Source: an uncultured Clostridia bacterium (GTDB taxonomy: Bacteria > Bacillota > Clostridia > Peptostreptococcales > Anaerovoracaceae). From it: a stretch of DNA of 64,000 bases. Below, one piece after another: positions 1,717 to 63,253 of this stretch. The stretch covers positions 24,813-88,812 of the forward strand of contig CAKQOE010000003.1 in assembly GCA_934255545.1 (NCBI GenBank), read 5' to 3'. The notes under the pieces are model-generated. The model was given only the letters and a program-made list of their open reading frames with translations. It made no database searches and had not been told where the DNA came from. The stretch's first letter is position 1; the number at the start of each line of letters is the position of its first letter. A program made the position numbers and the translations under genes.

Positions 1717-1727
1717 ACTGAATTGAA

Positions 1728-18503: not shown

Positions 18504-18592
18504 TTCTAATTAAAAACGCTTAAGAAACTTACGCAGGGCAAGCCTTTGAAAAGCTTCCCTGCAGGCAAGTTTCTCAACTTGAACCGGAGGTT

Positions 18593-19549
18593 TTGATTAT
18601 GAGCAATGTTGAAGGAAGCTCTATCGAGAGAAAAGCGTTCATATTCAACAAGCAGAAATACAATATGTATGATGGCCCCGGTGTCAGAACACTGGTTTTT
18701 TTCAAAGGCTGTCCGCTGAGATGTAAATGGTGCGCAAATCCGGAAGGACTTGAAAGAAAGTACCAGATAATGCTCAGACCGACAAGCTGTGTCGGATGCG
18801 GTGCGTGCGTTCCGGCCTGCCCGCAGGGCCTTCACAGCATATCAGATACCGGAGAGCATCTTATAGACAGGACTAAGGACTGTATAGGATGCGGCGCATG
18901 TGTAGAAGCGTGCAATTATTCGGCGCTGAAAGTAGCCGGTGAATATGCAACGATATCTGAACTTCTTGATTATGTCGAGGAGGACAGAGCATTCTATGAG
19001 CAGTCAGGCGGCGGTGTAACCCTCGGCGGCGGTGAAGTAACTGCACAGCCGAAGGCAGCAGAAAGTCTGCTGATGGCATGTAAACAGAACGGTATCCATA
19101 CCGCGATAGAAACATGCGGTTATACAAAAAAAGAAACTATCCTGAGGATAGCTGAGTACGTAGACCTGTTCCTGTTTGATATAAAAAATATCGATCCGGA
19201 CAGACACTATGATCTCACAGGCGTAAGGAACGAGATCATCCTCGAAAACCTTAAAGCGCTCCTTCAGAATAAGAAAAATGTAAAAATCAGAATGCCTCTG
19301 CTTAAGGGGATAAATGACAGCGAAGAGGAGATCAGAGGTGTTATCGATTTCCTCATGCCATTTAAAAATTATAGAAACTTCCAGGGGATAGATCTCCTGC
19401 CGTATCATAAGCTCGGCGTAAACAAATACGTTCAGCTTGGCATGGACTATCCTGTAGAGGGAGATCCTTCACTGACAGATGATGATCTGGACAGAATAGA
19501 AGGCTGGATCAGCGAGTATGACTTTCCTGTTAAAGTCATCAAGCATTAA
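18593..19549 (+). CDS. cutD: glycyl-radical enzyme activating enzyme (CutD)
   Basis: 318 aa radical SAM protein. [12 protein letters not shown] plus two ferredoxin-like clusters ([23 protein letters not shown]). Confidence 0.8.
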
Positions 19550-44800: not shown

Positions 44801-47800
44801 CAAGAATATGGATACTACTGTCAATTCATTCACATATACACCTGCAAGCATAATGTACATTGGCAAAGATGGCGTGGAAAAGACTGCGGCTTTACCTGCA
44901 GTCAAGTATGAATTGTCTGCTTATTATACATTGAAACCTGGAATCCAGGTCGAAGGGCAGAGCAGTATCATTACAGTTTTAAATAAAGATGGAACACCTG
45001 CTTCTGAAGTAACGATATATTTGAACGGAACAGAAATCGGTAAAACAGATGATTCAGGGCAACTTGAAACTGACGCCATGAAAGAAATGAAGGCTAATAC
45101 GGAGTACACTCTTACGGCAGATGGAAGTAAGGGTGTAGCAGAAGCTGTGAAGTCAACTGTGCTTGCTAATACATTTACAGACGAAGAACCTTTTAAGGCG
45201 ATACATCTGAATGCTTCAGAGAATGGATCTACAGATCAGAACATAAGCTTTTTAAGTGATCCGACAAGATCTGCTGCATCTGCATATGTAAAGTATCGTA
45301 TTGCTGATACAGGATCAGAGTGGCAGATAGTTTCAGGAAGTAGCACTTTAACTGATTTCAGCACCAGCAAAAATGCTGCGAGAGTCAATGCGATACATAT
45401 TACAGGATTAAAGCCAGAGACTAAATATGAATTTATGGTAGGCGATGGTGAAAAATGGTCTGAAATAAAAACGTTCAGTACGGTTACTGAAGCTGATGAT
45501 GCTGATACATCTTTCTTTGTTATGGGCGATACTCAGATGAGTGGAGATCAGGAAAGTGATGCTGATAAAGAAGCTCTGAAGATCATGCAGGATCTGAGCA
45601 GTATTCTTAAAGGCAAAAAAGTAGATTTTGGCTTACAAACTGGCGATTATGTAGATAATGGCAGCAATCTTGCCATGTGGCAGGAAATGCAGGATGCGTT
45701 CAGTTCATGCTATCCTTCAACAGATATCATACATACTTTAGGCAACCATGAGTATTATGGAAATGCCACCGGTGATATTGCTAATAATATTTTACAACTT
45801 CCGGACAAAGATTATTATTCTGTAGAATATGGAAGCGTATATGTAGCTGTGATCAATAATTCTGCAGATCTTAATAAGGCATGTGAATGGCTCATAACTG
45901 ATGCTGCCAAGAGCAATTGTCAGTGGAAAGTACTGGCTGTACATCAGCCTCCTTACTATACCAATGCTAACGGCGGAAGTGAAAAATTTAACAAAATTAT
46001 TCCTGATGCAGCAGAGAAAGCAGGTATTAATGTTGTTTTCTCAGGGCATGATCATTCTTATGCCAGAACGCCTATGCTAAAGGATGGACAGGCAGTTGAA
46101 GAAAACGGTGTAGTATACTTTATATGCGGAGATCTGGGTGAAAAGTCCAGAAATGTAAACTACGCTATAACATCCGGTTTTAAATATGAACATGCCACAC
46201 AGGATTATACAGGCATTATGCTGTACGTTACAGCTGAAGATGGTACTATGTCTATCACTGCTTACGATAGCACTGGCGGAGGTAATATTTTAGACAGTGT
46301 AGTTCTTAATTCAGCATGCAAAGACGGTCACGATTACGAAATATATGACAATGATACGGGCAAGGTAGTCTGCAGTCGCTGTGGACATTCAGAAACACTT
46401 GAAAAATTGAAATATACTGGTTGGCTGTCTGTAAAGAATACAAATGATAAAATGTATTTTATCGATGGTAAGTATAAAACAGGCTGGTTTACTATCGGTA
46501 CTACTACGTACCATTTCTCAGATGAAGGTATAATGCATGAGACAACAACAGTAGATACACGTACCTGCACAAAGAGTGGCGCACTTGTAACTACATGTAA
46601 TGTATGTCATGCTCAGCAGTCAAGTCAGTCACTGTGGCCAGAAGGACATAACTGGGATAGTGAACACGTATGCACGAAATGCGGTACTGTCGGTAAGGAT
46701 ATTTCAAAGGCAGAATTGCAAGTATATAATGCTACGATGGATGATCCAAGAGCAGCTGTGGTAGCTACTTATGACAATACTAAGCTAACTCTTAAGAGCA
46801 GCCAGGTAAACTGTGATGGTTATGTGACATATTCAAATAATGCAGGTGTTGGCGTTGGTACAGTTACTATTACAGGTGAGGGAGACTTTTACGGTACAGT
46901 TTCTGCAAGCTATAAAATTACACCAGGAGTTGTAAAGAGTGTGACTGTTGGTACAGTTACACGCAACAGCATAGACCTTAATTGGTCTGAAAGTAAGGGC
47001 GCAACGAAATATCGTGTGGAGATCAGTAAAGATGGTGGATCCACATGGTCATCTGTGAGATATACTTCTGATAACAAGATGACAGTTACTGGACTGGAGA
47101 CGGGTGTTTCGTACGCATTCAGATTATATGGTTATACATACATTGGTGATGTGTGCTACAGTGCACCACACTATTCTTCTGTAGTTACTGCAATTACGGA
47201 AAGCAATAAGGAACCGTCTACTCAGGATCATATTTCAAATATCATTGCAAAAGTTTCAGGTGCAGATCTGTCTATGCAGTTAGTTGATGGTACAGCATAT
47301 CTGTTCCTACCTTCTTATGCTGATATGACACAATTACCTTTAACATTTACTATGCGTGATATTGAAACAGATAGAGTGACATTAAGCGGTGATGCAGGAA
47401 ATGTAATATTAGATAGCCTTTCAGATACAGTGAATATGACTGAGATCACTGGTGATAAGGGTGGCCGCATGATGGTACAGATAGATGGACTCAGTGCAAT
47501 GCCTGTATATGTCATGCATTCAGATAATATTTCGTCGATGTATATTACAAGTGATGATCCTGAAAATAAGGGCAGAGAATTTGTAGATGCAAGTAAATCA
47601 AACAAGGCAACTGCTCAGATGAAGCTGATCAGCGAAGATGGCACTGTAATTTACGATGATGCAATGTCGCAGTTAAAAGCTCGAGGCAATACAACTTTCG
47701 TAAACGCAGAAAAGAAGTCTTATCAAATCAAATTGAAAAATAAGACTGACCTTATAGAATGCGGTGAAAAAAACAAGACATGGGTACTGCTTGCCGGTTA

Positions 47801-49997
47801 CTTTGATGCTACTCAGATGCATGATAAGGCGTATAAGGACTTAGCAAGAAGTATCGGTATGAGCTATGTCCCTAACTGCGACTGGATCGATCTGTATTAT
47901 GACGGAGAGTATCGAGGAACGTATCTCCTTGGTGAGAAAAATTCTGTAGGTAAGACTGGCGTAAATGTTACAGATATGGAAGAAGCTTACGAAGGTTTAA
48001 ATACAGATTACGGTGTCAATGCGATAACTGCTACTGCTGAAAATCGTTATGGATGTACATATCAGTATACAAAGAATCTAACAGAACCAGATGATATTAC
48101 AGGTGGTTACTTGTTAGAGTTAAATATGCCTGGTTATGATGAAGCCAGCGGTTTCAAGACGGTTAACGGAGCTGTTTTAAATGTAAAGAGTCCTGAGTGG
48201 TGCGGAAAAGATGCCATGGAATACATCAGTGAATATTATCAGGATTTTGAAAATGCAGTTTATGCGACTGATGAAAATGGTAACTATACTGGTTATAACG
48301 AGGCTACGGGTAAGTATTATTACGAATACTGTGATCTTACATCTTTAGTTCAGATGTATCTTATACAAGAGCTTGCCAATAATGTAGATGGTTTTTATTC
48401 ATCTTTCTATTTCTATAAAGACGCTGACGGCATAATGTATGCAGGTCCTGTATGGGATATGGAATCTACTGCTGGCAGTGGATGGTCAGGATATGTCAGT
48501 CCAGATATGGAATTTATCAATGGCCGTTATCTGGCAAAGGCTCTGACTCAGATACCTGGATTTATGAGTGCAGTAAAAGAATATTATAATGATACATTCA
48601 GAGGTGCTTCAGAGAAGCTTATAGGTGATAATGGGATCTTGCAGCAGAGCTCACAGAAAATTTCTGCAAGTACATCTATGAATTATGTTATGTGGCCTTA
48701 CATCAGAGTGGGCAATCCGAAAACCAGCAATCATCTGTGGCCTGACGGAACAACATATAATACAGTAGTAGATGATATGGTCTCATGGATAAAGAAACGT
48801 ATTGATGCATTGGATGCATCTTATCCTAAAGATGGACCAATCACTCCTGTTGAACCGACTGACCCTGTTGAACCAACGATTCCAACGGAGCCGACTGTCC
48901 CTGTTGAACCAACGATTCCGACTCAGCCGACAGTTCCGGCAGATCGTATTTATACGGTGAAAGCTGATTACTATATTAATGGCAGAAAAGTAAATAGCGA
49001 GCCTGTGGAACTCTTGTGCGGCACAGCAGAAGTAGATACAGTTATTACGATCGTTCCGGAAAATACATGGAGCACATATAATGGAGAACATTATATACTG
49101 GATACGTCAGACATGAAAATAGCAGTTACTGCTGAGTCGGAAAAGAATGTGCTGATATTACGCTATAATAAAACGAGTGGTGGAAGCAGTAGCGGAAGTG
49201 GTTCACATGCCTCGAACTATACAGTTTCTGTTGGTAATGTAAATAATGGTACGGTAACCGTTTCCTCTAAGGTTGCAGCTAAAGATGATACCATAATCAT
49301 CACGGCGAGTCCAAATAAGGGATATGATCTGAAAAGCATCACTGTTTTGGACAAAAATGGAAATAGTATAAAGTATATTGAGAAGGACGGAAAATATATA
49401 TTTAATATGCCGACCTCTAATGTAACGGTTTCTGCTTCATTTGTTAAGGATAACAGTCAGGCTGATAACAAGATGTTTGATGATGTCCTGCCGGGTTCTT
49501 ACTATTATGATGCTGTAAAGTGGGCAATAGAAAATGATATTACAAATGGTAAGACAGAAAAACTCTTTGGTTCAGACGATCCTTGTACGCGAGGTCAGAT
49601 CGTTACATTCCTTTGGAGAGCGGCAGGTTCACCTGAAGCATCTAAATCAGCAAACTTTACGGACGTAAATGATAATGATTATTATGCAAAGGCAATAGCG
49701 TGGGCTGTAGAGAGCGGAATAACTAATGGTACAGGAAAAGGTCTATTCTCTCCTGATGAGACATGTACCAGAGCTCAGTGCGTAGCGTTCTTATATCGTG
49801 CTGCAGGAATTCCTGATATAGATGGTATATCAGCATTTAATGACGTAGCATCAGACGCTTACTACGCAAAAGCAGTAATCTGGGCAGAACGGAATGGTAT
49901 CACAAAAGGTATCAGTGATAATATGTTCGGTTCAGCTAACAGCTGTACTCGCTCACAGATAATCACATTCAGTTACAGATATGCTCAGTGCAAGTAA
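41844..49997 (+). CDS. giant (2717 aa) SLH-anchored surface protein with phosphodiester glycosidase, Ig-like/FN3, calcineurin-like metallophosphoesterase and CotH kinase-like domains
   Basis: Signal peptide. NAGPA-like phosphodiester glycosidase region (AINGDYYN...IYLDGGGSATF). Metallophosphoesterase motifs (FFVMGDTQ, GDYVDNG, LGNHEY, VFSGHDHSYAR). CotH-like region (WVLLAGYFDATQMHDKAYKDLA...IDLYYDGEYRGTYLL). PT-rich linker (PTDPVEPTIPTEPTVPVEPTIPTQPTVP). Three C-terminal SLH repeats. Confidence 0.7.
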   Translation: MRLKKIKPKKVLSLVLSCALISSLITPAAFAAVKKVMPPDGKVLISQTDHKLANGVTESDVFLNEASGNAQIAGYMLTVEPDSQATFKASYRNYYTDGSTIDSRKNNAKNLKWGLESTTDQAADYERATGGNVIAAINGDYYNMQTGQPLGYLIMEGNLVQKNNGSSNEPYFAVLKDGSFAIREPGTDCSDVQEAISGPFYLVHDGQIVVDPNNTDLMPRNSIGVKEDGTVVTFVADGRQYPYSVGMSIYDLACYYEKQGVENAIYLDGGGSATFASKREGTNKLEIRNSPSDGVERTVSSALLLVSTADKDGKFDHASVEPNNQLYTPGSTVQFSASGVDAAGGPADLPDDIKWTLKEDSCGNIDKNGLFTPAKDYRGNVEVQLLYENNVIGSTDVTIADVTDISFTGDSASLDFGAESDLGLTVKSNGRDIIYKNGDFIWSVTPEDIGSVENNIFTAAGGTNTLTGNVKVSYVYDDSIADSISVEIGKMPEVLIDFEPDENGPLTGAHYHWGKEDFVKAGITEGYSGSVSPVEVITSGAYSDNPVHSMLEAPFIFTGNWDTAVPAADIFRANGYTFYLWPNNSITTYNVGTVKTSTEEEGGHVRFGDYSLELNYDYSSYNGTSNSNFYLRYCGEQKKIEGYPTQIGVWVYVPEGSWKYSMYADLVYWNGSDYSTKNFKLYHAKNGDTSDTSEGNITTETDWSGWRYCYADVGEFFASYQNAEHPISIIPGQGLFWLSYQPGGDSEFKGRKNGSVFYDNYRVVYGTNLDDLDNPMIDSITVNDKSLEEDSSTVIDANTIEIETKYHDVDGNNKSGINASATVILIDGKEMTADKADDIALSRLEMTNGHHVVTVRVYDNFGNAAEMTRGFTVYNGDEDKTSTVSILGDDFVPLGGEYTLKVISTEDIQSVYMILSNLNSDIGEPEVKPSDGWKVTQQEYKNTGFKKASLTLKLEKKETSSLMMRIKRKLDDLLTKDLAEITFHIDKNMDTTVNSFTYTPASIMYIGKDGVEKTAALPAVKYELSAYYTLKPGIQVEGQSSIITVLNKDGTPASEVTIYLNGTEIGKTDDSGQLETDAMKEMKANTEYTLTADGSKGVAEAVKSTVLANTFTDEEPFKAIHLNASENGSTDQNISFLSDPTRSAASAYVKYRIADTGSEWQIVSGSSTLTDFSTSKNAARVNAIHITGLKPETKYEFMVGDGEKWSEIKTFSTVTEADDADTSFFVMGDTQMSGDQESDADKEALKIMQDLSSILKGKKVDFGLQTGDYVDNGSNLAMWQEMQDAFSSCYPSTDIIHTLGNHEYYGNATGDIANNILQLPDKDYYSVEYGSVYVAVINNSADLNKACEWLITDAAKSNCQWKVLAVHQPPYYTNANGGSEKFNKIIPDAAEKAGINVVFSGHDHSYARTPMLKDGQAVEENGVVYFICGDLGEKSRNVNYAITSGFKYEHATQDYTGIMLYVTAEDGTMSITAYDSTGGGNILDSVVLNSACKDGHDYEIYDNDTGKVVCSRCGHSETLEKLKYTGWLSVKNTNDKMYFIDGKYKTGWFTIGTTTYHFSDEGIMHETTTVDTRTCTKSGALVTTCNVCHAQQSSQSLWPEGHNWDSEHVCTKCGTVGKDISKAELQVYNATMDDPRAAVVATYDNTKLTLKSSQVNCDGYVTYSNNAGVGVGTVTITGEGDFYGTVSASYKITPGVVKSVTVGTVTRNSIDLNWSESKGATKYRVEISKDGGSTWSSVRYTSDNKMTVTGLETGVSYAFRLYGYTYIGDVCYSAPHYSSVVTAITESNKEPSTQDHISNIIAKVSGADLSMQLVDGTAYLFLPSYADMTQLPLTFTMRDIETDRVTLSGDAGNVILDSLSDTVNMTEITGDKGGRMMVQIDGLSAMPVYVMHSDNISSMYITSDDPENKGREFVDASKSNKATAQMKLISEDGTVIYDDAMSQLKARGNTTFVNAEKKSYQIKLKNKTDLIECGEKNKTWVLLAGYFDATQMHDKAYKDLARSIGMSYVPNCDWIDLYYDGEYRGTYLLGEKNSVGKTGVNVTDMEEAYEGLNTDYGVNAITATAENRYGCTYQYTKNLTEPDDITGGYLLELNMPGYDEASGFKTVNGAVLNVKSPEWCGKDAMEYISEYYQDFENAVYATDENGNYTGYNEATGKYYYEYCDLTSLVQMYLIQELANNVDGFYSSFYFYKDADGIMYAGPVWDMESTAGSGWSGYVSPDMEFINGRYLAKALTQIPGFMSAVKEYYNDTFRGASEKLIGDNGILQQSSQKISASTSMNYVMWPYIRVGNPKTSNHLWPDGTTYNTVVDDMVSWIKKRIDALDASYPKDGPITPVEPTDPVEPTIPTEPTVPVEPTIPTQPTVPADRIYTVKADYYINGRKVNSEPVELLCGTAEVDTVITIVPENTWSTYNGEHYILDTSDMKIAVTAESEKNVLILRYNKTSGGSSSGSGSHASNYTVSVGNVNNGTVTVSSKVAAKDDTIIITASPNKGYDLKSITVLDKNGNSIKYIEKDGKYIFNMPTSNVTVSASFVKDNSQADNKMFDDVLPGSYYYDAVKWAIENDITNGKTEKLFGSDDPCTRGQIVTFLWRAAGSPEASKSANFTDVNDNDYYAKAIAWAVESGITNGTGKGLFSPDETCTRAQCVAFLYRAAGIPDIDGISAFNDVASDAYYAKAVIWAERNGITKGISDNMFGSANSCTRSQIITFSYRYAQCK

Positions 49998-52188: not shown

Positions 52189-52782
52189 ATGGCGGAGCAC
52201 GTAAAAAAGCAGATAGACCGGGACGCTATACGGGAGCATATACGCGGTATACTCGTCGCTCTCGGCGACGATCCGGACCGAGAAGGTCTTAAAGAAACGC
52301 CTGACAGGGTAGCGCGCATGTATGAAGAGGTCTTTGAAGGTATGAATTATACGAATGACGAGATCGCGGAGATGTTCGACAAGACATTTGAAGACGAGCT
52401 CGAGTTCTCTGAACAGTCGCAGGATCTTGTCATAGTGCGGGACATAGACGTTTTCAGCTACTGCGAGCACCATATGGCTCTCATGTACGACATGAAGGTG
52501 ACTGTAGCGTATATACCGTCAGGAAAAGTCATAGGCCTCAGCAAGATCGCGCGTATAGCCGATATGGCAGCAAAGCGCCTGCAGCTTCAGGAGCGCATAG
52601 GATCTGACATAGCGGATATCATAGAAAAGGTGACAGGCTCAGACGACGTAGCCGTGCTCATAAGCGCGCGCCACAGCTGTATGACGGCGCGCGGCATAAG
52701 AAAATCAGACGCAAAGACATACACGGAAACGCTGCGCGGAAGATTCCGTGACGAGCCGCTTTTACAGATGAGAGTAAGATAA
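52189..52782 (+). CDS. folE: GTP cyclohydrolase I FolE
   Basis: [26 protein letters not shown] and [11 protein letters not shown] are FolE signatures. Confidence 0.8.
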
Positions 52783-52800
52783 GACGAGAGGAATATAAAA

Positions 52801-53298
52801 ATGACAGGAAGAACAAACGACGAAACACAGGGCATAACGCTCCTGGGAAACCAGGGTACAAAATATCCCGACGATTACGCGCCTGAAGTGCTTGAAACAT
52901 TTATAAACAAACACCCGGACAACGATTATTTCGTAAAATTCAACTGCCCGGAATTCACGAGCCTGTGCCCGATCACAGGCCAGCCTGACTTTGCGACTAT
53001 AACGATCTCATACGTTCCGGATATAAAAATGGTAGAGAGCAAATCACTCAAGCTCTATCTTTTCAGCTTCAGAAATCACGGCGACTTCCACGAAGACTGC
53101 GTAAACATCATAATGAAGGATCTCATAAAGCTCATGGAACCTAAATACATCGAAGTCTGGGGCAAATTCACGCCGCGCGGCGGCATCTCGATAGACCCGT
53201 ACTGCAACTACGGCAAGCCGGGCACGCGCTGGGAAGACGTAGCGTGGAAGCGCCTCGCGGAGCACGACATGTATCCTGAAAAGGTGGACAACAGATAA
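52801..53298 (+). CDS. queF: NADPH-dependent 7-cyano-7-deazaguanine reductase QueF (unimodular type)
   Basis: [17 protein letters not shown]...[20 protein letters not shown] is the QueF signature with catalytic Cys. 165 aa. Confidence 0.8.
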
Positions 53299-53391
53299 AG
53301 TACAGATATCACGCGCCGGCGCGTGCCGTAAGAGTGATCTATTTATATATGTATTTATTTAAAAATTAATTATTTATTAAAAGGGGAAAAT

Positions 53392-54390
53392 ATGTGCACA
53401 GCAGCCACATACAAAACAAAAGACTTTTATTTCGGGCGCACGCTCGATTATGAATTCTCATACGGAAGCGAGATAGCAGTAATGCCGCGAAGATACCCGC
53501 TGAAATTCAGACATCCGGAAAGCAGCGTCGGCCCTGCCGACGAGCACTGGGCCATCATCGGGATGGCGCACGTCGTAAACGATCATCCGCTGTTTTTTGA
53601 TGCAGTAAATGAAAAGGGCCTCGGCATGGCGGGACTGAACTTCGTAGGAAACGCGGTATTCGCCGAGCCTGCAGATACTGAGTCAACAGGAAAACTGAAC
53701 GTAGCTCAGTACGAGTTCATAACATGGATACTTTCACAGTGCGCCGATCTGGATGAAGCACGCAAAAAGCTCGCAGTCATGAACCTGACAGGCGAGCCAT
53801 TCAGTGAGCAGCTTCCTGCAGCACAGCTCCACTGGATTATCGCAGATAAAACAGGCGCTATAACAGTAGAATCGATGGCGGATGGTCTGCATGTATATGA
53901 AAATCCGGCAGGAGTCCTTACAAATAACCCACCGTTCGAGCAGCAGATGTTCCAGCTCAATAATTATGCGGCGCTGTCGCCTCGCCGGCCTGATAATACA
54001 TTCGCGCCGGGCTTTGAACTGAACGCATACAGCAGAGGCATGGGAGCGCTCGGGCTTCCGGGAGACCTTTCATCGACATCGCGCTTCGTAAGAGCAGCTT
54101 TCACAAAGCTCAACTCTCACTCAGGCACCGGCGAAAACGAAAGCGTGAGCCAGTTCTTCCATATACTTGGCTCAGTAGACCAGCAGCGCGGCTGCTGCGA
54201 GGTGGAGCCGGGCAAGTATGAAATAACCATATACACATCATGCTGCAACGCAACAAAGGGCATCTACTACTATACGACATACGAAAACCACCAGATATCA
54301 GCCGTAGACATGCACAGAACAGACCTCGACAGCGAAGCTCTCACGTGCTACCCGCTGATAGAAACACAGCAGATAAATTTCCAGAATTAG
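53392..54390 (+). CDS. choloylglycine hydrolase / penicillin V acylase family Ntn-hydrolase (bile salt hydrolase-like)
   Basis: Starts MCTA (nucleophilic Cys2 after the initiator Met). 332 aa, typical of the linear amide C-N hydrolase family. Confidence 0.65.
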   Translation: MCTAATYKTKDFYFGRTLDYEFSYGSEIAVMPRRYPLKFRHPESSVGPADEHWAIIGMAHVVNDHPLFFDAVNEKGLGMAGLNFVGNAVFAEPADTESTGKLNVAQYEFITWILSQCADLDEARKKLAVMNLTGEPFSEQLPAAQLHWIIADKTGAITVESMADGLHVYENPAGVLTNNPPFEQQMFQLNNYAALSPRRPDNTFAPGFELNAYSRGMGALGLPGDLSSTSRFVRAAFTKLNSHSGTGENESVSQFFHILGSVDQQRGCCEVEPGKYEITIYTSCCNATKGIYYYTTYENHQISAVDMHRTDLDSEALTCYPLIETQQINFQN

Positions 54391-54400
54391 GTATAAAAAT

Positions 54401-55066
54401 ATGAAATATATATACGCGCCGGGCTGCGCGCTCATGCTTTACGATAGAGAACTTGCAGAGCTTCTGAAAAAAAAGATAGAAAAGAGATATACGCTTGCAG
54501 ACACGAGATACATGTGCTGTCTTGATGCAGAAACACCCGACAAAGATACTGCGATCATCACAACATGCACGTACTGCCACACGCACTACAGAACAATACA
54601 GCCGGATGCGCCGCATGTATTTTTTCTTGAGGATCTGGCTGAAAGCGGTGATTTTGATTTTCCTGATTACGGCGGCGCAGAAATGAGCATACACGACACC
54701 TGTTCCGGAAGAGCCGATGACCGTTACCTGAACACCGTGCGCAAGCTGCTGCAGAGAATGAACATCCGAGTAACAGAGCCGGAACGTTCGGGCAAGCGCG
54801 GTATATGCTGCGGCTCGTCGCTTTATGGCAGGCTGCCGATAGAAAAGGTCACTGAATTCATGAAAAAAAGAGCTGACCAGATGCCGTGTGAGGACGTAGT
54901 AGTATACTGTCCTACATGCGTGCAGAGCATAGCCATAGGCGGCAAACGACCGAGATATATACTTGATCTGCTTTTCGGACGCGAAACATCGCCGAGCGTC
55001 GGAAGCGGTGACAGCATAGATGAATGGAAAAAAGATCTCGGTAAATATCGTGAAGAAAACAGATAA
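54401..55066 (+). CDS. CCG-domain (Cys-rich) Fe-S protein, LutA/HdrB-like
   Basis: Two Cys-rich CCG-type repeats (APGCALM...YMCCLDAE...TTCTYCH and DTCSGR...GICCGSSLYG...VYCPTCV). Confidence 0.55.
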   Translation: MKYIYAPGCALMLYDRELAELLKKKIEKRYTLADTRYMCCLDAETPDKDTAIITTCTYCHTHYRTIQPDAPHVFFLEDLAESGDFDFPDYGGAEMSIHDTCSGRADDRYLNTVRKLLQRMNIRVTEPERSGKRGICCGSSLYGRLPIEKVTEFMKKRADQMPCEDVVVYCPTCVQSIAIGGKRPRYILDLLFGRETSPSVGSGDSIDEWKKDLGKYREENR

Positions 55067-55169
55067 GCGCAGCAATACTGATGCTGAATATGCATGAAGA
55101 TAGTACAAAAGTGATTGAAATTCAACGACTGTACAGATTAAAAAACATAAAAAAATCAATCTATACATT

Positions 55170-55205
55170 TGACATGTTTTTTACGTTGTGCTAATCTAAT
55201 GGCAG
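55170..55205 (+). promoter_or_regulatory. sigma-A-type promoter (TTGACA-17-TAATCT) for the second GRE operon
   Basis: catTTGACAtgttttttacgttgtgcTAATCTaatgg. Confidence 0.5.
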
Positions 55206-55516
55206 TTAAAAATTTTACACTACAAAGGATAGAGGCGCAGCAGCCAAAAGTATCCTGTGTTTATCAAGGCCGTCGCGAGGCTGCGGACACAGAGGAAAGG
55301 GGTCGCTGCCGAAGGCGGATGAGGCGAAACTCCGTCTGGGCATACGGAAAATATCCGTATGACTGTCGCATTTGTGCGGAGCGCTATACTTGATCGTACT
55401 CACAGCGGCCCGGCCGTAAACCGCAGAACAGACCGGACACCAGAGAAAAACCGAAAAATTAGATTTTAAGCAAACTCATAATAAGTAAACTTGAATTTTA
55501 ACAAGGTAAAGATCAC

Positions 55517-55550
55517 AGTCGATTACAGGGTCAACGCACAGAGCGTTGAT
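55517..55550 (+). terminator. intrinsic terminator inside the 5' leader (candidate attenuator)
   Basis: gggtcaacgc-acag-agcgttgatcc followed by tttttt. About 55 nt upstream of the GRE start. Confidence 0.65.
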
Positions 55551-55602
55551 CCTTTTTTAATGCACAAAATGCAGATAAATATGGAGAAGGAGAAAAAAGG
55601 TA

Positions 55603-57966
55603 ATGCTGAATGAAAGACTCACTCGTATGAGAGAAAAATACTTTAATACTATCCCGGCTATAACGGCCGAGCGTCTGGTGCTCGCTACAGAAGCATATCA
55701 GAAATTTGCAGGCGATGTTGCGCCGGTATTCCGCGCAAAGATAGCAAAGTACGTTATGGAGCGCATGACTACGCTGATCATGGAAGATGAGCTTATAGTA
55801 GGTACGCCTACAAATACATACCGCGGAGCAAATCTGTTTCCTGAGTACACGTCAAGCTCATGGCTCATATCAGACATCGATGAGTTTCCGGTAAGAAAGA
55901 CAGACCCTTACCGCATCAGCCCGGAGGACCGCGAAGCTATACTTGAAACACTCAAGTACTGGGAAGGCAAGGCAATAGAGGACATGGCGCCTGAGATCCT
56001 GCCTGATTACATAGAAAACGCGCGTCAGAAGGACCTTATCTCAGTAGGCTGCAGAAACGGCGTTTCAGGAGAAACGACACCTAATCATAAAAAATTCCTC
56101 GAGATCGGCCTTAAGGGATTCATGAAGGAATGCCGTGAAAATATTGACCGCGTAAAGGGCGGTACAAAAGAAAAACAGGAAAAGGTGGATTTCTGGAGAG
56201 CATGCATAATATTCTGCGAGGGCCTTATAACATACGCTCACAGAATGGCAGACGAAGCAGAACGCCAGGCGTCTGAGTGTGAAGATCCAAAGAGAAAGCA
56301 GGAGCTGCTGACTATAGCTGAAAACTGCAGAGTAGTTCCTGAAAACCCGCCGCAGAACTTCTGGCAGGCGCTTCAGATGATCTGGTTCATACAGGTAGCG
56401 TTCCATATAGAAGCACCGACTACAGCATGCGGCTTCGGAAGATTCGACCAGTATATGTATCCTGCATTCAAGGCTGATCTCGACAGCGGCGCCATAAACG
56501 ACGACAGCGCGCTCGAACTTCTTGAATGCTTCTACCTCAAGTGCTGCGAAGTATATGAAGTCCGCGACAAGTGGTACGCGAAATCATTCGCAGGCTACCC
56601 GATGTGGGAAATACTCGTAGTAGGCGGCCAGACACCTGACGGCAAGGACGCAAGTAATGAGCTCTCATACCTCTGCCTCGATGCAGCCGCAGATCTGCAG
56701 ACTACACAGCCTGTACTCGCAGTAAGAGTATTTGAGGGCACACCTGAGCCTCTTATCAGAAAAGGCGCTGAAATGATCCAGCAGGGCATGGCTAATCCGG
56801 GATTCTTTAACGACGAGGCAGCTATAAAGATGACGCTCGGTAAGGGCTGCACTATGGAGGAAGCGAGAGACTGGACTATAGTAGGCTGCATACAGCCGGG
56901 ACCGGGAGGCGGCACTACAGACGGTTCGCCTGACGCAGGCTACGTAAACGCCCCTAAGGTACTTGAGCTTGTTCTCCATAACGGTATCGACCCGGCGACG
57001 GGTGAAAGGCTTGGACTTGAAACAGGAGATCCGAGAGATTTCAAGACATTTGAAGATCTCGTAGAAGCTCTTAAAAAGCAGCTTGTTTACTGCTACAGGA
57101 TGATAAAGGACGGATACGACCTTATGGTCCCTTACCACAGCGTAAACTACCCTGTAATATTCGCTTCCATGGCTATGCAGGGCTGCGTTGAGTCAGGAAA
57201 GTCAGTCCAGGAGGGCGGCGCGAAGTACACTACTGCAGGGATGTTCATAACAGGTGCAGCAAACCTCGGCGACTCTCTGACAGCTATAGAAGACCTTGTA
57301 TACAACAAGAAAAAGATAACGATGGACGAGCTCATAAAAGCGCTCGACAAGAATTTCGAAGGCGAAGAACGTATGCGCCAGATGCTCATAAACGAGCCTC
57401 CTAAGTACGGAAACGACGACCCGCACGCAGACGCGATGGTACGCGACCTCCTGAAGTTCTGCGCGGACACAGTTCAGGAATGGGAAGACTCAAGAGGCGG
57501 ACATTACTCATTCAGTAATCTGTCACAGACGGTAAATATCTCACACGGCGAAGTGTGCGGAGCTACACCTGACGGACGTCTTGCAGGCGAGCCTTACTGT
57601 GACAATGCTTCGCCGACTATGGGACGTGACCTCAACGGCCCTACAGCTACGGTAAAATCAGTAGCTGCCATAGACCAGAGCAACTTCCATGACGGCGCGC
57701 TCTTCAATCTGAGATTCGACCCTAAGGGCATCCAGGGCGAAAAGGGCATTCAGATAATCGAGGGAGTTATAAAGACATACTTCGAAAACGGCGGCGAACA
57801 CATACAGATAAATGTCGTTGACGATGAAACGCTCAAAAAGGCGCAGCAGAAGCCTGAAGACTACAGAGGCCTTATGGTCCGTGTAGCCGGTTACATGGCT
57901 TACTTCACAGAACTCGACAAGGCGGCGCAGGACACTATCATATACAGAACTGCGCACCTTAAGTAA
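55603..57966 (+). CDS. glycyl radical enzyme of unknown specificity (787 aa) with non-canonical Cys loop
   Basis: Gly radical motif VRVAGYMAYFTEL (Gly763). Cys loop VGC429IQ431PGPGG has Gln where eliminase-type GREs have Glu. The N-terminus resembles GDH/HypD-type GREs. Confidence 0.8.
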   Translation: MLNERLTRMREKYFNTIPAITAERLVLATEAYQKFAGDVAPVFRAKIAKYVMERMTTLIMEDELIVGTPTNTYRGANLFPEYTSSSWLISDIDEFPVRKTDPYRISPEDREAILETLKYWEGKAIEDMAPEILPDYIENARQKDLISVGCRNGVSGETTPNHKKFLEIGLKGFMKECRENIDRVKGGTKEKQEKVDFWRACIIFCEGLITYAHRMADEAERQASECEDPKRKQELLTIAENCRVVPENPPQNFWQALQMIWFIQVAFHIEAPTTACGFGRFDQYMYPAFKADLDSGAINDDSALELLECFYLKCCEVYEVRDKWYAKSFAGYPMWEILVVGGQTPDGKDASNELSYLCLDAAADLQTTQPVLAVRVFEGTPEPLIRKGAEMIQQGMANPGFFNDEAAIKMTLGKGCTMEEARDWTIVGCIQPGPGGGTTDGSPDAGYVNAPKVLELVLHNGIDPATGERLGLETGDPRDFKTFEDLVEALKKQLVYCYRMIKDGYDLMVPYHSVNYPVIFASMAMQGCVESGKSVQEGGAKYTTAGMFITGAANLGDSLTAIEDLVYNKKKITMDELIKALDKNFEGEERMRQMLINEPPKYGNDDPHADAMVRDLLKFCADTVQEWEDSRGGHYSFSNLSQTVNISHGEVCGATPDGRLAGEPYCDNASPTMGRDLNGPTATVKSVAAIDQSNFHDGALFNLRFDPKGIQGEKGIQIIEGVIKTYFENGGEHIQINVVDDETLKKAQQKPEDYRGLMVRVAGYMAYFTELDKAAQDTIIYRTAHLK

Positions 57967-58901
57967 TGCAGGGCGGGGTGCTCACGGCTCCGGTAGGCGG
58001 CATACAGAAATTCTCTACAGAAGACGGTCCCGGCATAAGGACGACCGTCTTTCTGAAGGGCTGTCCGCTGAACTGCCGCTGGTGTCATAACCCGGAGCTC
58101 ATAAAATACCTTCAGCAGCTCATAAGGATGCCGAACAGCTGCATAAAGTGCGGCAGCTGCATAGAAGAATGCCCGCAGAAAGCGATATTCGTAAACAGCG
58201 AGGGCGAGATAGATATAGACAGAGAAAAATGCGATGTCTGTCTTAAATGCACAGAAACATGCTATGCAAAAGCGCTTCAGCCTGTAGCCGATATGATGAC
58301 TGCAGAGCAGGTCATGAAAACAGTAGAGCAGGACAGCCAGTTCTACAGGCACACAGGCGGCGGCATGACTGTCAGCGGCGGAGAGATGCTGACACATGCG
58401 CGTTTCGTAGCAGAGCTTATAGACGAAGCCGCAGCGCGCGGAATAAACGTCTGTCTCGATACATCCGGCTGCGGAAGCGGCGATGACCTTGAAAGGCTTG
58501 CATCACGTGAAAATGTGACTGATATCCTGTACGACATGAAATGCATAGATGAAGAAATACACAGATCAGCAACAGGAAGAAGCAATGATATAATACTCGA
58601 AAATCTCAGACGCCTGGCGTCTGACGAAACGCTTCGCGCAAAGCTTCAGATGCGCATGCCGCTCATAAAGGGGCTTAACGATGACTGGAGCCTGATAGAG
58701 CGCACGGCTGAGCTTTACAGGGAACTCGGTATAAAGCGCGTAACGCTCCTGCCGTATCACAGCCTCGGCCTCATAAAAGAAAAACACCTCGGAGGCGAGC
58801 AGACAGAGTTTGAGCCGCCGGACGACGAGTACGTTGACAGGATAAAGAGCTTTTTTGAAGAGGAATGCGGCATGGAGGCTGAGATACTCGGCAAGCTTTA
58901 A
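57966..58901 (+). CDS. glycyl-radical enzyme activating enzyme (for GRE 2)
   Basis: CPLNCRWCHNPE radical SAM motif plus CIKCGSCIEECP and CDVCLKCTETC auxiliary clusters. Start overlaps the GRE stop by 1 nt. Confidence 0.8.
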   Translation: MQGGVLTAPVGGIQKFSTEDGPGIRTTVFLKGCPLNCRWCHNPELIKYLQQLIRMPNSCIKCGSCIEECPQKAIFVNSEGEIDIDREKCDVCLKCTETCYAKALQPVADMMTAEQVMKTVEQDSQFYRHTGGGMTVSGGEMLTHARFVAELIDEAAARGINVCLDTSGCGSGDDLERLASRENVTDILYDMKCIDEEIHRSATGRSNDIILENLRRLASDETLRAKLQMRMPLIKGLNDDWSLIERTAELYRELGIKRVTLLPYHSLGLIKEKHLGGEQTEFEPPDDEYVDRIKSFFEEECGMEAEILGKL

Positions 58902-59131
58902 GCGCGCATTGTATGTGCGCAGCGCGGCCTCAGCCGCAAGATGCATGTGCGGTGACGCACACGAAGATAAAAACTTGTTATTGAAATATTTTACATAAAT
59001 CAAATTTGATGGACATTCAGGCGGTGACGAATTTTTTACCGATTAATACTGTATTTTTATACTAAATCCGTCTGTTTTTACCATATATAAAGTTATAATC
59101 CGTTATATTTATCTAAGGAAGGAAAGATATT

Positions 59132-60634
59132 ATGAGCAAGGATTCAGGTGAATCAAAAGAAAACAACTCGCTCAAGCGCAGACTGACGTCACGCCACCTT
59201 TCAATGATCGCCATAGGCGGTTCGATCGGTACGGGACTCTTCCTCGCGATGGGCGGAACTATACGTGACGCGGGCCCCGGCGGCGCGATGGTAGCGTATA
59301 TGATAATGGGAGCAGTAGTATTCTGCATGATGACTGCACTCGGCGAAATGGCTACAAAGCTGCCTATACCGGGAGCGTTCACATCATACGCAAACAGATT
59401 CATAGATCCTGCGTGGGGATTTACAAACGGCTGGGCTTACTGGTTCGGCTCATCAATGACAGTTGCGGCAGAGCTCATAGCCGGAGCCATAATCATAAAA
59501 TACTGGTTCCCGGGAACTAACTCATCGCTGTGGGCAATGCTGTTCCTTGCAGCGCTGCTCGCTATAAACCTGTTCTCGGTAAAGGGCTTCGGAGAAGCCG
59601 AGTTCTGGTTTGCAGGCATTAAGGTAGTCGTAACTATCATATTCCTCATCGTAGGCGTTCTTATGATCGTAGGCATCATGCACAGCGGCGAGGAAGCAGG
59701 ATTCCACAACTGGGTGCTCGATGGCGGCGAAGCCGGAAAAGCACCGTTCATAAACGGCATCGGAGGTATCATAGGGATATTCATGGTAGCGGCCTTCTCG
59801 TTCTCAAATACAGAGCTCGTAGGTCTGAGCGCCGCTGAGGCAGAAAATCCAAGCAGAGACGTTCCAAAGGCTATAAACAGCGTATTCTGGAGGATCATGA
59901 TATTCTACCTCGGTACTATATTCGTTATAGCTACACTCATCCCGTTCACAGAGCCTTCACTGCTCAGCGCTGCAGAAGACAACGTAGCAGCTTCACCGTT
60001 CACTATCATATTCAGAAACGCAGGCTTTGCGGCAGCAGCTTCTGTGATGAACGCAGTTATCCTCACATCAGTTCTTTCGTGCGGTAATTCTTCATTATAC
60101 GCAGCATCAAGAACACTTCAGCATATGGCTGAAAAGGGAGACGCGCCTAAGTTTTTCGCAAAGATCAGCAGCCACGGCGTTCCTGTAAGAGCCGTACTCG
60201 CTACTTCTATCATAGCAGCTTCAGCGTTCGGCGCCTCACTTATAGGCGACGGCAGAGCTTATACTGCAGCTTACTACCTGTGCGGTATCGCAGGCATATA
60301 CAACTGGCTGACTATCAGCGTTGCACACTATAAGTTCAGAAAAGGCTGGGTAAAGCAGGGACATTCACTCAATGAACTCGAATACAAGTCACCGTTCTTC
60401 CCTTACGGTTCGTGGTTCTGCATCATCATATGCATTATCATATGCTTCGGCGCGAACTGGTGGGTATTTACGGACTTCAACTGGTTCGACTTCCTCACAT
60501 GCTATGCCATCATCCCGCTTTCAATAGTCATGTTCTTCGTTTACAAGCACGTAAAGAAGACAAAGTGGGTAAGATACGAGGATATGGACTTCACACCGCC
60601 TGAGGGTGTTACTCGCAAAGACATATCAGCATAA
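59132..60634 (+). CDS. APC-superfamily amino acid permease (LysP/AroP-like)
   Basis: 500 aa, 12 TM. SRHLSMIAIGGSIGTGLFLAMG signature. RBS AAGGAAGGAAAG. Confidence 0.75.
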   Translation: MSKDSGESKENNSLKRRLTSRHLSMIAIGGSIGTGLFLAMGGTIRDAGPGGAMVAYMIMGAVVFCMMTALGEMATKLPIPGAFTSYANRFIDPAWGFTNGWAYWFGSSMTVAAELIAGAIIIKYWFPGTNSSLWAMLFLAALLAINLFSVKGFGEAEFWFAGIKVVVTIIFLIVGVLMIVGIMHSGEEAGFHNWVLDGGEAGKAPFINGIGGIIGIFMVAAFSFSNTELVGLSAAEAENPSRDVPKAINSVFWRIMIFYLGTIFVIATLIPFTEPSLLSAAEDNVAASPFTIIFRNAGFAAAASVMNAVILTSVLSCGNSSLYAASRTLQHMAEKGDAPKFFAKISSHGVPVRAVLATSIIAASAFGASLIGDGRAYTAAYYLCGIAGIYNWLTISVAHYKFRKGWVKQGHSLNELEYKSPFFPYGSWFCIIICIIICFGANWWVFTDFNWFDFLTCYAIIPLSIVMFFVYKHVKKTKWVRYEDMDFTPPEGVTRKDISA

Positions 60635-60933
60635 TATATAAGCAAAGTAATAAATACCCATATATGTCAGTAAGCTGCGCTCACGCGCAGAACAAGCTGA
60701 CGACGCGCCCGGCGCGTCAACAGGACCTGCAGCCGTTGCTTTCTGCGGTTATGAGCAGCCGCTGCAGGTCTCCTTCTCCAGCCCCACCCCCCCCGCCCCA
60801 AAAAAGCGAGAAACAAAAAACAAACCAAAAACAAACAAAACACAACACAAAAACGCGCCGTCCATCCGGACCGCGCGTTTTTCCACACCCTGAAATCAAA
60901 ACTACAGGACGCCTGAGTATTTAAAGCGTCTTT

Positions 60934-61980
60934 TTATTTATCACTTTTTCTGCTTGAAGCGACCTCCATATAAACAGAACTCAAAAGCACAAGCCCGGCC
61001 CCGATCCAGCCTGCGGCTCCCATAGCTTCATTGAGCAGTATGACAGATATGACACAGCCTGAAGCAGGTTCCATGGCAAATATAACGCCTGCGCGGTTAG
61101 CCGGGACATACTGCTGGCAGACGGACTGCAGCAGGAAAGCAGCAGCGCTGCAGAAAAGCCCCAGGAACACTATAGTTCCGAGATGGAGCGGAGTTATATG
61201 TATATCGCTGAACGATCCGGTAAACAGAGCAGCCGCCGACGTCCACAACGCGACAAACGCCATGAGCAGCGTCGTAAACAGCATAGGATCAAAATCATTT
61301 TCAGCCGGAGCTTTATCATGCTCGCCGTCAGCAGCCTTCACGTCAGATCCGCTGCCGCGCGATATCCTGTCAAGAAATATTATATGAAGCGATCCGGCAA
61401 CGGAGGCCACCATGCACAGCAGATCGCCGGCATTCAGCGCAAGCCCGGCCATGCCCGGCGTATAGCTTAAAAGAAGCACGCCGACAAAGCATATTATGAT
61501 ACTGCGCGCTATGATCCCGTTTATCTTTACCTTAAACAGTATCCTGTTTATGATCGGCACGAAAACGAACGTCAGACACGTAAAAAACGATGCGCGCGCC
61601 GATATAGTGTACTTTATGCCTATAGTAGAAAAAACGTACATGCCGGTTATGAAAAACGACAGCATGAAAGCCTGTTTTATGACTTTGAGATTTATACGCG
61701 CGAGATTCCTGTGAAACACAACTGCCAGTACAGCCGCGGCCACGAGAAACCTTACCGGAAGTATAAAAAACGTAGGCTGGTCCTCGACTATCTTTGTAGC
61801 CGGGTAGCTAACGCCCCATAAAAGCGCCGCGATAAATATCCCGGCCGCGCCTAAAAGCTCCTTTTTATCAGCAATGCGGCCGTTTTTTCCGGCTCCGCCC
61901 TTACTGCCGCCGGCGGCAGCGCTCTGATGTATATTATTAGTATTCTTTTCCATGATCCTTCCTCTTTTTATTAAAAACAC
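60934..61980 (-). CDS. EamA/DMT-family transporter
   Basis: 348 aa, roughly 10 TM with duplicated EamA-like halves. Confidence 0.55.
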   Translation of the reverse strand: MFLIKRGRIMEKNTNNIHQSAAAGGSKGGAGKNGRIADKKELLGAAGIFIAALLWGVSYPATKIVEDQPTFFILPVRFLVAAAVLAVVFHRNLARINLKVIKQAFMLSFFITGMYVFSTIGIKYTISARASFFTCLTFVFVPIINRILFKVKINGIIARSIIICFVGVLLLSYTPGMAGLALNAGDLLCMVASVAGSLHIIFLDRISRGSGSDVKAADGEHDKAPAENDFDPMLFTTLLMAFVALWTSAAALFTGSFSDIHITPLHLGTIVFLGLFCSAAAFLLQSVCQQYVPANRAGVIFAMEPASGCVISVILLNEAMGAAGWIGAGLVLLSSVYMEVASSRKSDK

Positions 61981-62368
61981 AACATACTATTATATATCAA
62001 AAATATGCAAGTGAAAATATTTATGTGACAGACTTGCGGCTGAAATAACTGCACATAAAAAATATACAGCAGCAAAAATATATGATGTAAGCATGAGCGC
62101 GCATAACAAAACCGTTTGCGATAGAAAAGCTCAGAAAATGCATGGCTGATCTTGTGCGCCGATGGTGATTGACTCAGCAGTACAGGAATGGTATCATTTT
62201 CTAGAAATAAATAATATGATATGATATTTTGCAGGCGTCACCGCCTGTGCGAAACCGGCCGGAAGCGACCGCTCAATATGGTATGCGCCATACATCGTGG
62301 GCGGTCGTTTCTGCGCAGCCGTTTAAATGCAGAAAATATATAAAATATGTAAAGGAAATAAAAAAATT

Positions 62369-63253
62369 ATGGGAAATAATATAAAAACTGTAAAGCTTCC
62401 CGACGGAAGCGAGATGCCGAAACTCGGACAGGGCACATGGCAGATGGCGGAAGACGATGCAAAAATGGAAAGAGAGATAGCCGGTCTGCGCCACGGCATA
62501 GAGCTCGGCATCCGCATGATAGACACAGCGGAGATGTACGCAGAAGGCAAGGCGGAAAGCCTCGCGGGCGACGCTATAAAGGGTCTGGACCGCAGCGAGC
62601 TTTATATAGTCAGCAAGGTCTATCCGCAGAACGCCAATAAAAAGCATATGTTCAGCAGCCTTGAGCGCAGCCTTAAGCTGCTCGGAACAGACTATCTGGA
62701 TATGTACCTGCTCCACTGGCGCGAGGACGCTGACCTCGCGGAAATGGTCTGGTGCATGGAAAAGCTTAAGGATGAGGGCAAGATAAAGCGCTGGGGCGTG
62801 TCTAACTTTGATGTGGCAGACATGGAGGACCTGTGGAAGGTGCCTGACGGCCACCGCTGCGTTATGAACCAGGTGCTTTATAACCTCGGAACGCGCGGTA
62901 TAGAGTACGACCTTATCCCGTGGCAGCGCGAGCACGGCGTGCCGTTTACAGCGTACAGCCCTGTAGGCCAGGCGGGCGCGCTCGTAACGCAGGACGGCGT
63001 ATCAAAAGCGCAGATGATGAGCGATAAAAACGTAAACGAAGTAGCTGCGCGCCTCGGCGTGTCAGTAGTCCAGCTCCTGCTGGCGTTTTCTATGCGTTTT
63101 GATGATTTTGCGTCTATCCCTAAGGCAGTGGGATTCGATCACATAGACGAAAACGCAGCAGCGCTTGACATCGCTCTGAGCGATGCAGATATAGAACAGC
63201 TTTCAGCTTCATTTCCGGCGCCTTTGAAGAAGATCGAGATAGAAAAGTATTAA
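62369..63253 (+). CDS. aldo/keto reductase
   Basis: GQGTWQMAED, IDTAEMY and the Lys/His catalytic tetrad context (LLHWRE). Start set to the Met with upstream RBS. The track ORF begins at 62327. Confidence 0.7.
   Translation: MGNNIKTVKLPDGSEMPKLGQGTWQMAEDDAKMEREIAGLRHGIELGIRMIDTAEMYAEGKAESLAGDAIKGLDRSELYIVSKVYPQNANKKHMFSSLERSLKLLGTDYLDMYLLHWREDADLAEMVWCMEKLKDEGKIKRWGVSNFDVADMEDLWKVPDGHRCVMNQVLYNLGTRGIEYDLIPWQREHGVPFTAYSPVGQAGALVTQDGVSKAQMMSDKNVNEVAARLGVSVVQLLLAFSMRFDDFASIPKAVGFDHIDENAAALDIALSDADIEQLSASFPAPLKKIEIEKY

Follow-up and report, generated by a model that had tools for sequence, protein, structure and literature searches.

What does the long leader of a glycyl radical enzyme (GRE) operon in an uncultured Clostridia bacterium sense, and does the signal switch the operon on or off? 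The operon lies in a 64,000-nt stretch of contig CAKQOE010000003.1 (assembly GCA_934255545.1), which was analysed as a whole and is called the window here; coordinates without a locus label are positions in it. A leader of about 400 nt separates a promoter-like site from the GRE start codon at 55603. The region from 54700 to 55900 was read directly, with open reading frames (ORFs) taken from a program-made list, and contains, from 5' to 3', the promoter-like site, a GC-rich segment, an AT-rich spacer, a hairpin followed by a T-run, a ribosome binding site (RBS), and the ATG. An earlier reading made from the letters alone (the sequence-only reading) had proposed a structured leader controlled by ligand- or protein-mediated antitermination, and had not matched it to any known class. 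We found that the structured part is almost certainly a lysine riboswitch aptamer, as predicted from its sequence and covariation. The whole reading, a lysine riboswitch acting by ligand-induced termination (an OFF switch), has in our judgement a probability of about 0.7.

The whole window was scanned with Rfam at the gathering threshold, which is 30 bits for the lysine riboswitch family RF00168. The single match was to this family, at 55222-55394 of the + strand, a span of 173 nt, with a score of 91.6 bits and an E-value of 8e-23; it is full-length, covering model positions 1-182 of 182 without truncation. The class that had been left unnamed is therefore found at once by such a scan, and the earlier exclusion of cobalamin, T-box, SAM, and glycine elements stood, RF00168 being the sole Rfam match. 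No other Rfam family reached E<=0.1 between 55100 and 55650. At E<=1 the one further candidate in the leader was freshwater-2 (E 0.64), which was non-significant and was rejected. The RNA is a member of an already known class, and Rfam-based annotation would label it; judging from family membership, L-lysine is the probable ligand. The aptamer and its helices, the latter placed by the Rfam consensus alignment, are as follows.

55222..55394, + strand: lysine riboswitch aptamer (RF00168), from Rfam cmscan and covariation in 14 aptamers
55227-55232 with 55384-55389, + strand: P1, extendable by 2 bp to 55391
55237-55245 (GCAGCAGCC) with 55301-55309 (GGUCGCUGC), + strand: P2
55253-55260 with 55287-55294, + strand: P2a
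55268-55271 with 55279-55282, + strand: P2b, a small hairpin (GGCU is 55279-55282)
55313-55319 with 55331-55337, + strand: P3
55338-55348 with 55354-55364, + strand: P4, containing catacgg/ccgtatg
55366-55370 with 55375-55379, + strand: P5

The strongly conserved junction motifs AGAGG, GAAAGG, GCCGAAG, CUGG, ACUGUC, and GGAG.GCUA are all present in the window and are largely invariant across a 12-sequence alignment. Furthermore, the score of the window aptamer equals the highest in the set, with every conserved core position intact. Among the helices named earlier, catacgg/ccgtatg proved to be P4, but gaaaggggtcgctgccgaaggcgg is conserved junction core and not a helix, and ggcgcagcagcc/ggctgcggac had been mispaired: the pairing of gcagcc with ggctgc was rejected as chance complementarity, the supported P2 is formed by GCAGCAGCC and GGUCGCUGC, and the GGCU belongs to P2b. 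A candidate L2-L3 kissing loop in the window has 4 bp (UCGC/GCGA), and the loops of relatives differ in sequence yet are complementary (UUCGC/GCGAA, CGGGA/UCCCG, CGAACC/GGUUCG, and CAGACAU/AUGUCUG), per-sequence shuffles being mostly not significant. In four leaders (L102, L133, L116, and L008) this pairing comprises at most 3 bp.

Genomes and metagenomes supplied 91 orthologous loci (designated L with a number), and we built a covariance model from five well-aligned aptamers and the Rfam-derived structure, which was used beside Rfam to find riboswitches. The two agreed in placing a lysine riboswitch upstream of the GRE module, on the same strand, in 13 of the 91 loci, representing about 10 sequence lineages. 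The leader is thus conserved upstream of orthologous GRE genes at 13 related loci, a check that the sequence-only reading had itself proposed, together with an Rfam scan and a covariation analysis. In the 14 aptamers, that of the window included, 92.9% of the pair cells form standard pairs, and compensatory double changes occur in 38 of 49 pairs, with some in every helix, figures somewhat inflated by the fitting of the alignment to the model. When the structure was slid by one to three columns, only 32-44% of the cells were paired, and none of 500 shuffles reached the observed values. Taken with the Rfam E-value, this covariation shows that the structured leader is real. An independent MAFFT/RNAalifold alignment of 12 aptamers recovered only P4 and P5, both with strong covariation, and was therefore replaced by the covariance model. 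In an nhmmer search with a profile of six sequences, the true riboswitches of L135, L158, and L091 were detected only weakly (E 0.01 to 3), and this search was not relied on. No degenerate riboswitch was found in the riboswitch-less relatives L004 (scanned for Rfam E-values) or L161-L163 (scanned with the covariance model).

How does the aptamer act on the genes behind it? Between it and the RBS lie the following elements.

55395..55526, + strand: spacer between aptamer and terminator, poorly conserved and of lineage-dependent length in an alignment of six leaders
55527..55559, + strand: intrinsic terminator found by a terminator scan, with the stem-loop AGGGUCAACGC-ACAGA-GCGUUGAUCCU at 55527-55553 and T's to 55559

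The hairpin, which can also be spelled AGGGTCAACGC-ACAGA-GCGTTGATCCT, has 11 pairs, six of them G-C, in the scan and a computed energy of -17.0 kcal/mol. A strong hairpin with a U-run had been recognised earlier, but at 55517-55550, coordinates displaced by about 10 nt. The end of the U-run and the GRE ATG are 43 nt apart, where a distance of 55 nt had been given for the terminator. A hairpin with a U-run lies 3' of the aptamer in all 11 distinct leaders, the sequences being unrelated and the distance from the aptamer ranging from 6 to 132 nt, and the platform therefore appears to act on transcription termination. Thus, the proposal of a ligand-sensing leader working through a downstream terminator is borne out by the RF00168 aptamer and the terminator at 55527-55559. 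The spacer of L002 carries a tandem duplication of about 40 nt (ACGGTCGGACATTG.., at about 420-500 of that locus), which aligns to 55404-55445 of the window; the window and L001 are otherwise near-identical to it.

The B. subtilis lysC-type lysine riboswitch (L-box or LYS element) has the same five-helix aptamer, all the junction motifs, and an intrinsic terminator as its platform, and ligand-induced termination is the probable logic of the window leader as well. However, the terminator of the window is 132 nt downstream and does not abut P1, the antiterminator is not evident, and the regulated genes are not those of lysine biosynthesis.

In the proposed mechanism, L-lysine at high concentration would bind the junction and lock P1 (55227-55232 with 55384-55389). 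The hairpin at 55527-55553 with its U-run would then be free to form, RNA polymerase would stop before the RBS, and neither the GRE nor its activase would be expressed, nor most likely the LysP-like permease. At low lysine, the released J5/1 GCG, the end of P1, and CUUGAUCGUACU would pair with 55517-55537, which holds part of the terminator 5' strand, and this antiterminator pairing would permit read-through. The likeliest effect of the ligand is thus termination and not the antitermination proposed in the sequence-only reading. We infer both this direction and the exact antiterminator of the window leader, whose two strands, taken from a minimum free energy (MFE) fold, would be the following.

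55381..55400, + strand: candidate antiterminator 5' strand (J5/1 GCG, end of the P1 3' strand, and CUUGAUCGUACU)
55517..55537, + strand: candidate antiterminator 3' strand, overlapping AGG (the first three nucleotides) and CGC of the terminator 5' strand

In the MFE fold of the nascent window transcript, cut at the terminator loop, 55381-55400 pairs with 55517-55537. Pairing of J5/1 and the P1 3' strand with the terminator 5' strand is seen in such folds of L001, L003, L006, L008, L156, L158, and L091 as well as of the window. Analogous long-range helices of other sequences are formed in L003 (UGAUUGUAAU:AUUACAAUUA with GCGCU:GGCGC) and in L006, and the segments flanking the spacer stay complementary in the window, L001, L003, and L006 despite sequence change. 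MFE folds of whole leaders were uninformative, with misfolded aptamers, because the tertiary energy is missing from them. The clearest cases are L156 and L091: in a four-state calculation, the coupling between P1 and the terminator was -11.3 kcal/mol in L156 (z = -3.0 against shuffled controls) and -7.7 kcal/mol in L091 (z = -3.7), and in a fold of the 3' part of L156 the terminator formed none of its nine pairs with the P1 3' strand free and all nine when it was blocked. With P2-P5 unconstrained, the coupling was negative in 12 of 12 leaders. Comparison of bound and unbound ensembles for pairing of the terminator 5' strand also pointed to OFF in all 12 leaders, a weak line of evidence because the unbound model frees more sequence. 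Mutually exclusive terminator and antiterminator folds, which the sequence-only reading had suggested looking for, are thus clear in L156 and L091 and suggestive in L003, L006, and L008, but in the window they are indistinguishable from shuffled controls.

Several observations weigh against an OFF switch, above all in the window itself. The window leader has a coupling of about 0, which falls inside the range of the shuffled controls even with the 2-bp extension of P1, and the duplex of the aptamer 3' tail with the terminator 5' strand is not significant there (z = -0.8), as is the case for the energy of this duplex in most leaders. The terminator lies 132 nt 3' of the aptamer; the proposed antiterminator shares just 1-3 nt with P1, plus the J5/1 GCG; and L102, L116, L133, and L135 show no obvious direct competition between P1 and the terminator. 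Furthermore, an AraC-type regulator adjoins the module in about 45 related loci, where it never co-occurs with the riboswitch, and control of this type is typical of a substrate-induced catabolic operon, so that an ON switch would fit if lysine were the substrate. Under such a design, lysine would prevent termination and induce a catabolic operon for lysine or a lysine derivative in an amino-acid-fermenting Clostridium. The hosts are related to Aminipila, Lentihominibacter, and Oscillospiraceae, groups of amino-acid fermenters, which was counted in favour of induction. There is also a precedent, since activation has been proposed for lysine riboswitches that precede kal and kce, genes of lysine fermentation, in amino-acid fermenters (PMC5584792). 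Those of C. sticklandii, F. nucleatum, and Thermoanaerobacter likewise precede non-biosynthetic enzymes in anaerobic Clostridia-type bacteria (PMC5584792); however, the enzymes differ and include no GRE, and the readable platforms of the present set (L156 and L091) look OFF. The clear complementarity of the P1 3' strand with the terminator 5' strand in these two leaders is that of an OFF switch, clearly positive coupling was found in no leader (maxima, +0.4 kcal/mol, and +2.5 in L158, which is within the null at z = 1.0), and no intermediate segment complementary to both the aptamer tail and the terminator was found. Moreover, the terminators are self-contained hairpins without the P1 3' strand, whereas in the classical ON design the terminator is built with that strand. 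We therefore regard induction by lysine as unlikely and keep ligand-induced termination as the preferred logic.

An alternative possibility could be a lack of functional coupling between aptamer and terminator in this lineage: the aptamer would be a relic or would act by some other route, for example RNA stability or Rho, and the hairpin would attenuate constitutively or terminate a small leader transcript. The coupling of about 0 and the poorly conserved 132-nt spacer would agree with this, as would spacer indels among near-identical relatives such as the L002 duplication. However, the aptamer core is intact, no aptamer in the set scores higher, each of the 11 distinct leaders has a terminator behind its aptamer, and complementarity across the spacer is kept in the window, L001, L003, and L006 while the sequence changes; we consider uncoupling very improbable. 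Still less credible are antitermination by a protein and a riboswitch of some other, perhaps new, class. Nothing was found in support of the protein-mediated mechanism that had been offered as one option: a long leader with promoter, structure, and terminator would suit it only in a generic way, the full-length lysine aptamer explains the structured part, the region from 55100 to 55650 holds no further Rfam family at E<=0.1, and in the alignment of six leaders the spacer has no conserved sequence able to serve as a protein-binding site. A small protein encoded by the ORF at 55169-55393 (74 aa, TTG start) has, in our view, next to no chance of being real. Its 74 codons are open in the window and in L001; however, the ORF coincides with the aptamer, three to four stops break its frame in L003 and L006 although both conserve the RNA, and the substitutions are compensatory in RNA helices. 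The earlier opinion that this ORF is not coding is thus upheld.

The remaining signals of the leader are those of initiation.

55169..55197, + strand: putative sigma-70 promoter, with a perfect -35 hexamer TTGACA (55169-55174), a 17-nt spacer, and an extended -10 TGc-TAATCT (TG at 55189-55190, hexamer at 55192-55197)
55583-55592, + strand: RBS GGAGAAGGAG
55603-55605, + strand: ATG of the GRE gene, the N-terminus MLNERL.. being common to orthologues

The promoter had been placed at 55170-55205; the site itself was found again, but the coordinates are now 55169-55197 and the -10 is weak, agreeing with the consensus at three of six positions, for which reason the promoter was absent from a consensus-scan list. 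In the alignment of six leaders, two close relatives, L001 and L002, share its exact sequence. As a pattern match it remains putative, and transcription would be expected to start near 55204. The RBS upstream of the GRE gene, also predicted earlier, was confirmed as GGAGAAGGAG. The 17 codons of a small upstream ORF (ATG CAC AAA ATG ... TGA) occupy 55560-55613, immediately behind the terminator, and extend over the GRE start in another frame; this ORF probably has no significance.

Which genes, then, does the riboswitch control? Two are directly downstream of the RBS, and a third is probable.

55603..57966, + strand: regulated gene 1, the GRE, 787 aa (Pfam PFL-like and Gly_radical)
57966..58901, + strand: regulated gene 2, GRE-activating radical SAM (S-adenosylmethionine) enzyme (TIGR02494, 290 bits against a cut-off of 174; Pfam Radical_SAM and Fer4)
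59132..60634, + strand: probable regulated gene 3, LysP-family permease, 500 aa (Pfam AA_permease)

The GRE was assigned by NCBIfam to the broad subfamily TIGR01774 only, and it scores under every equivalog cut-off (HypD, CutC, HpsG/HpfG, IAD, HPAD, and PFL), with 598 against 1100 for HypD, 565 against 1050 for CutC, and less for the others. The closest solved structure is HplG (7vua, 591 bits), a trans-4-hydroxy-D-proline C-N lyase, followed by glycerol dehydratase, CutC, and propanediol dehydratase. With GRE eliminases and isomerases such as HplG, glycerol dehydratase, CutC, and HypD, the enzyme shares the fold family, the glycyl radical motif (R760-V-A-G763-Y), the catalytic Cys, and a dedicated activase; C429 and the motif are invariant in its clade, as judged from a 10-member alignment. 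However, in a residue-level alignment the Cys loop is G-C429-I-Q431-P (about 56887-56901), compared with G-C-I-E-P in HplG and G-C-V-E-P in glycerol dehydratase and CutC. The sequence GC[IV]QP is found in 119 of the 120 best GRE homologues, and these positions are invariant in the 10-member alignment. By contrast, all characterised GRE eliminases and isomerases acting on C-O, C-N, and C-S bonds keep C-x-E, according to a 2026 review in which neither lysine nor riboswitches are mentioned (PMC13450708). The GRE is a member of a large uncharacterised C-x-Q clade, the proteins of which are at least 64% identical, with Gln in place of the Cys-loop Glu that serves as general base two residues after the Cys. 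Distant GRE paralogues in L012-L080 mostly have the Cys loop GCNQI.

The start of the activase gene overlaps the GRE stop. The permease follows after a gap of 230 nt, in which no + strand terminator was found and a weak promoter-like site lies at 59035-59063; the order GRE-activase-permease is conserved in 27 loci, and the permease is most likely co-regulated with the other two. Its sole strong match in the PDB is P. aeruginosa LysP (9eyd, E 6e-143), and it scores 542 bits with NCBIfam NF008094, under the cut-off of 735. For P. aeruginosa LysP, N104, W105, and S377 have been proposed as the lysine-specificity residues (PMC12764776). The equivalents in the GRE-linked permeases differ, being G, S, and C in 27 of 27, although F215 and K162 (P. 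aeruginosa numbering) are kept. The transported compound may thus be derived from lysine and bulkier at its distal end.

A census in which all ORFs of the loci were clustered and annotated by Pfam revealed a conserved module of a reductase, either an aldo-keto reductase (AKR) or a short-chain dehydrogenase/reductase (SDR), a GRE, an activase, and a transporter of the LysP or NhaC type. At the head of the module stands the lysine riboswitch in 14 cases, that of the window among them, or the AraC-type regulator in about 45 loci; the two are never found together, which looks like replacement of one regulator by the other. At least five gene orders follow the riboswitch: GRE-activase-LysP, GRE-activase-NhaC, activase-GRE-NhaC, NhaC-AKR-GRE-activase, and NhaC-EamA-AKR-GRE-activase. 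Since the riboswitch precedes the GRE module in many lineages and gene orders, the association of this enzyme with lysine sensing is no accident of one genome. LysP (COG0833) and NhaC/LysW (COG1757) are standard transporter targets of lysine riboswitches (PMC5584792), and their co-regulation was therefore counted in favour of the lysine riboswitch reading. Like riboswitch-controlled lysine transporters elsewhere, the operons start or end with one of the two; however, the transporter here is always accompanied by a GRE and an activase, and usually by an AKR or SDR. Formate lyases and radical enzymes are never mentioned in the main text of that survey (PMC5584792). Our literature search found no lysine riboswitch or lysine-related function tied to a GRE, papers on riboswitches and GREs being judged by title and abstract, and no paper pairing a lysine riboswitch with glycyl radical or pyruvate formate; in a search for glycyl radical with glycated lysine, the 10 top-ranked papers lacked the term 'glycyl radical'. 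Among the papers on riboswitches and GREs, the GapMind preprint proved irrelevant, and the one match for GREs with hydroxylysine concerned the metabolomics of human urine (PMC6057290).

The position of a lysine riboswitch before a GRE operon suggests that the enzyme works on lysine or a lysine derivative. One possible explanation, which we put forward tentatively and regard as doubtful as a whole, is a previously unrecognised lysine-linked radical pathway, in which a LysP or NhaC transporter with a modified pocket would import a modified lysine, and a C-x-Q GRE related to HplG together with an AKR or SDR would release or regenerate free lysine. Such a pathway would be switched off by its own product where the riboswitch is present and induced by its substrate where the AraC-type regulator is. 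Regeneration of lysine from the transported compound by the GRE and the reductase may take place, and repression by lysine would agree with it. Possible substrates are N-epsilon-(2-hydroxyalkyl) lysines, glycated lysine, and the 5-hydroxylysine of collagen. GREs are prominent in gut anaerobes, and to our knowledge most GRE sequence clusters have no known substrate. The RNA itself is routine, and its value lies in the pointer it gives to the substrate class of a widespread C-x-Q clade: a lysine sensor, two lysine-type transporter families, and a reductase beside these GREs narrow the substrate search to lysine and its derivatives. If the proposal is correct, lysine metabolism would gain its first assigned GRE, and a GRE clade would for the first time be deorphanised under the guidance of a riboswitch. 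If the GRE frees lysine from glycated or hydroxylated lysine, it would constitute a new gut-bacterial route to the lysine of processed food or collagen. The riboswitch also offers a simple experimental handle, namely expression with and without lysine.

Some further features of the related loci were observed. The AraC-type regulator, of about 620 aa, consists of a cupin domain, HTH_18, and a long C-terminal extension, and is encoded in loci between L004 and L163, for example at 2725-4575 (- strand) of L007 and 525-2399 (- strand) of L137. Lentihominibacter faecis BX16 (L004) has an AraC gene next to the module and no riboswitch, and L008, which carries the riboswitch, belongs to a cultured bacterium, Eubacterium sp. 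F2 (NZ_CP176393). In riboswitch-less relatives, a direct repeat AGCAAyCCGAT(n)ATT is found upstream of the GRE gene (L004, 5865-5900; L161, about 50-90; L162, about 1287-1320) and may be an operator for a protein regulator. The reductase gene, AKR or in other lineages SDR, can be directly beside the GRE gene, in the order AKR-GRE-activase-permease (L007, 5034-5921; L132, 1611-2369). In the window, the AKR gene (62327-63253, + strand) lies 1.7 kb downstream, past a divergent EamA transporter gene (60934-61980, - strand). An 86-aa ORF without a Pfam or NCBIfam match (60664-60924, + strand) is beside the EamA gene, and an 86-aa gene also adjoins EamA in L163 (996-1256). Two modules look damaged: at 8388-9308 of L001 the activase matches fall into two separated pieces, and at 9388-10721 of L008 the permease match breaks off at about 250 aa and is continued by part of an AKR match, as if a deletion had occurred.

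As for the surroundings of the operon, the genes directly upstream of the leader (52189-55066) appear to have no connection with the riboswitch operon. They encode FolE (GTP cyclohydrolase I), QueF, a bile salt hydrolase that scores 465 bits against a cut-off of 350 (53392-54390), and a CCG-domain protein (54401-55066). L001 (CAVGTL010000002.1), the GRE of which is 98% identical to that of the window, has the same folE-queF-CCG context; the record is labelled as a metagenome-assembled genome of Succinivibrio sp., whereas the other relatives are Clostridia, and the label is probably a binning error. The other GRE of the window (15909-18503), a bona fide CutC that scores 1674 bits with the equivalog model, is encoded with the activase CutD (together, 15909-19549); it has the normal Cys loop GCVEP and no riboswitch leader. 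The window also contains an ORF of 2717 aa at 41844-49997 of the + strand.

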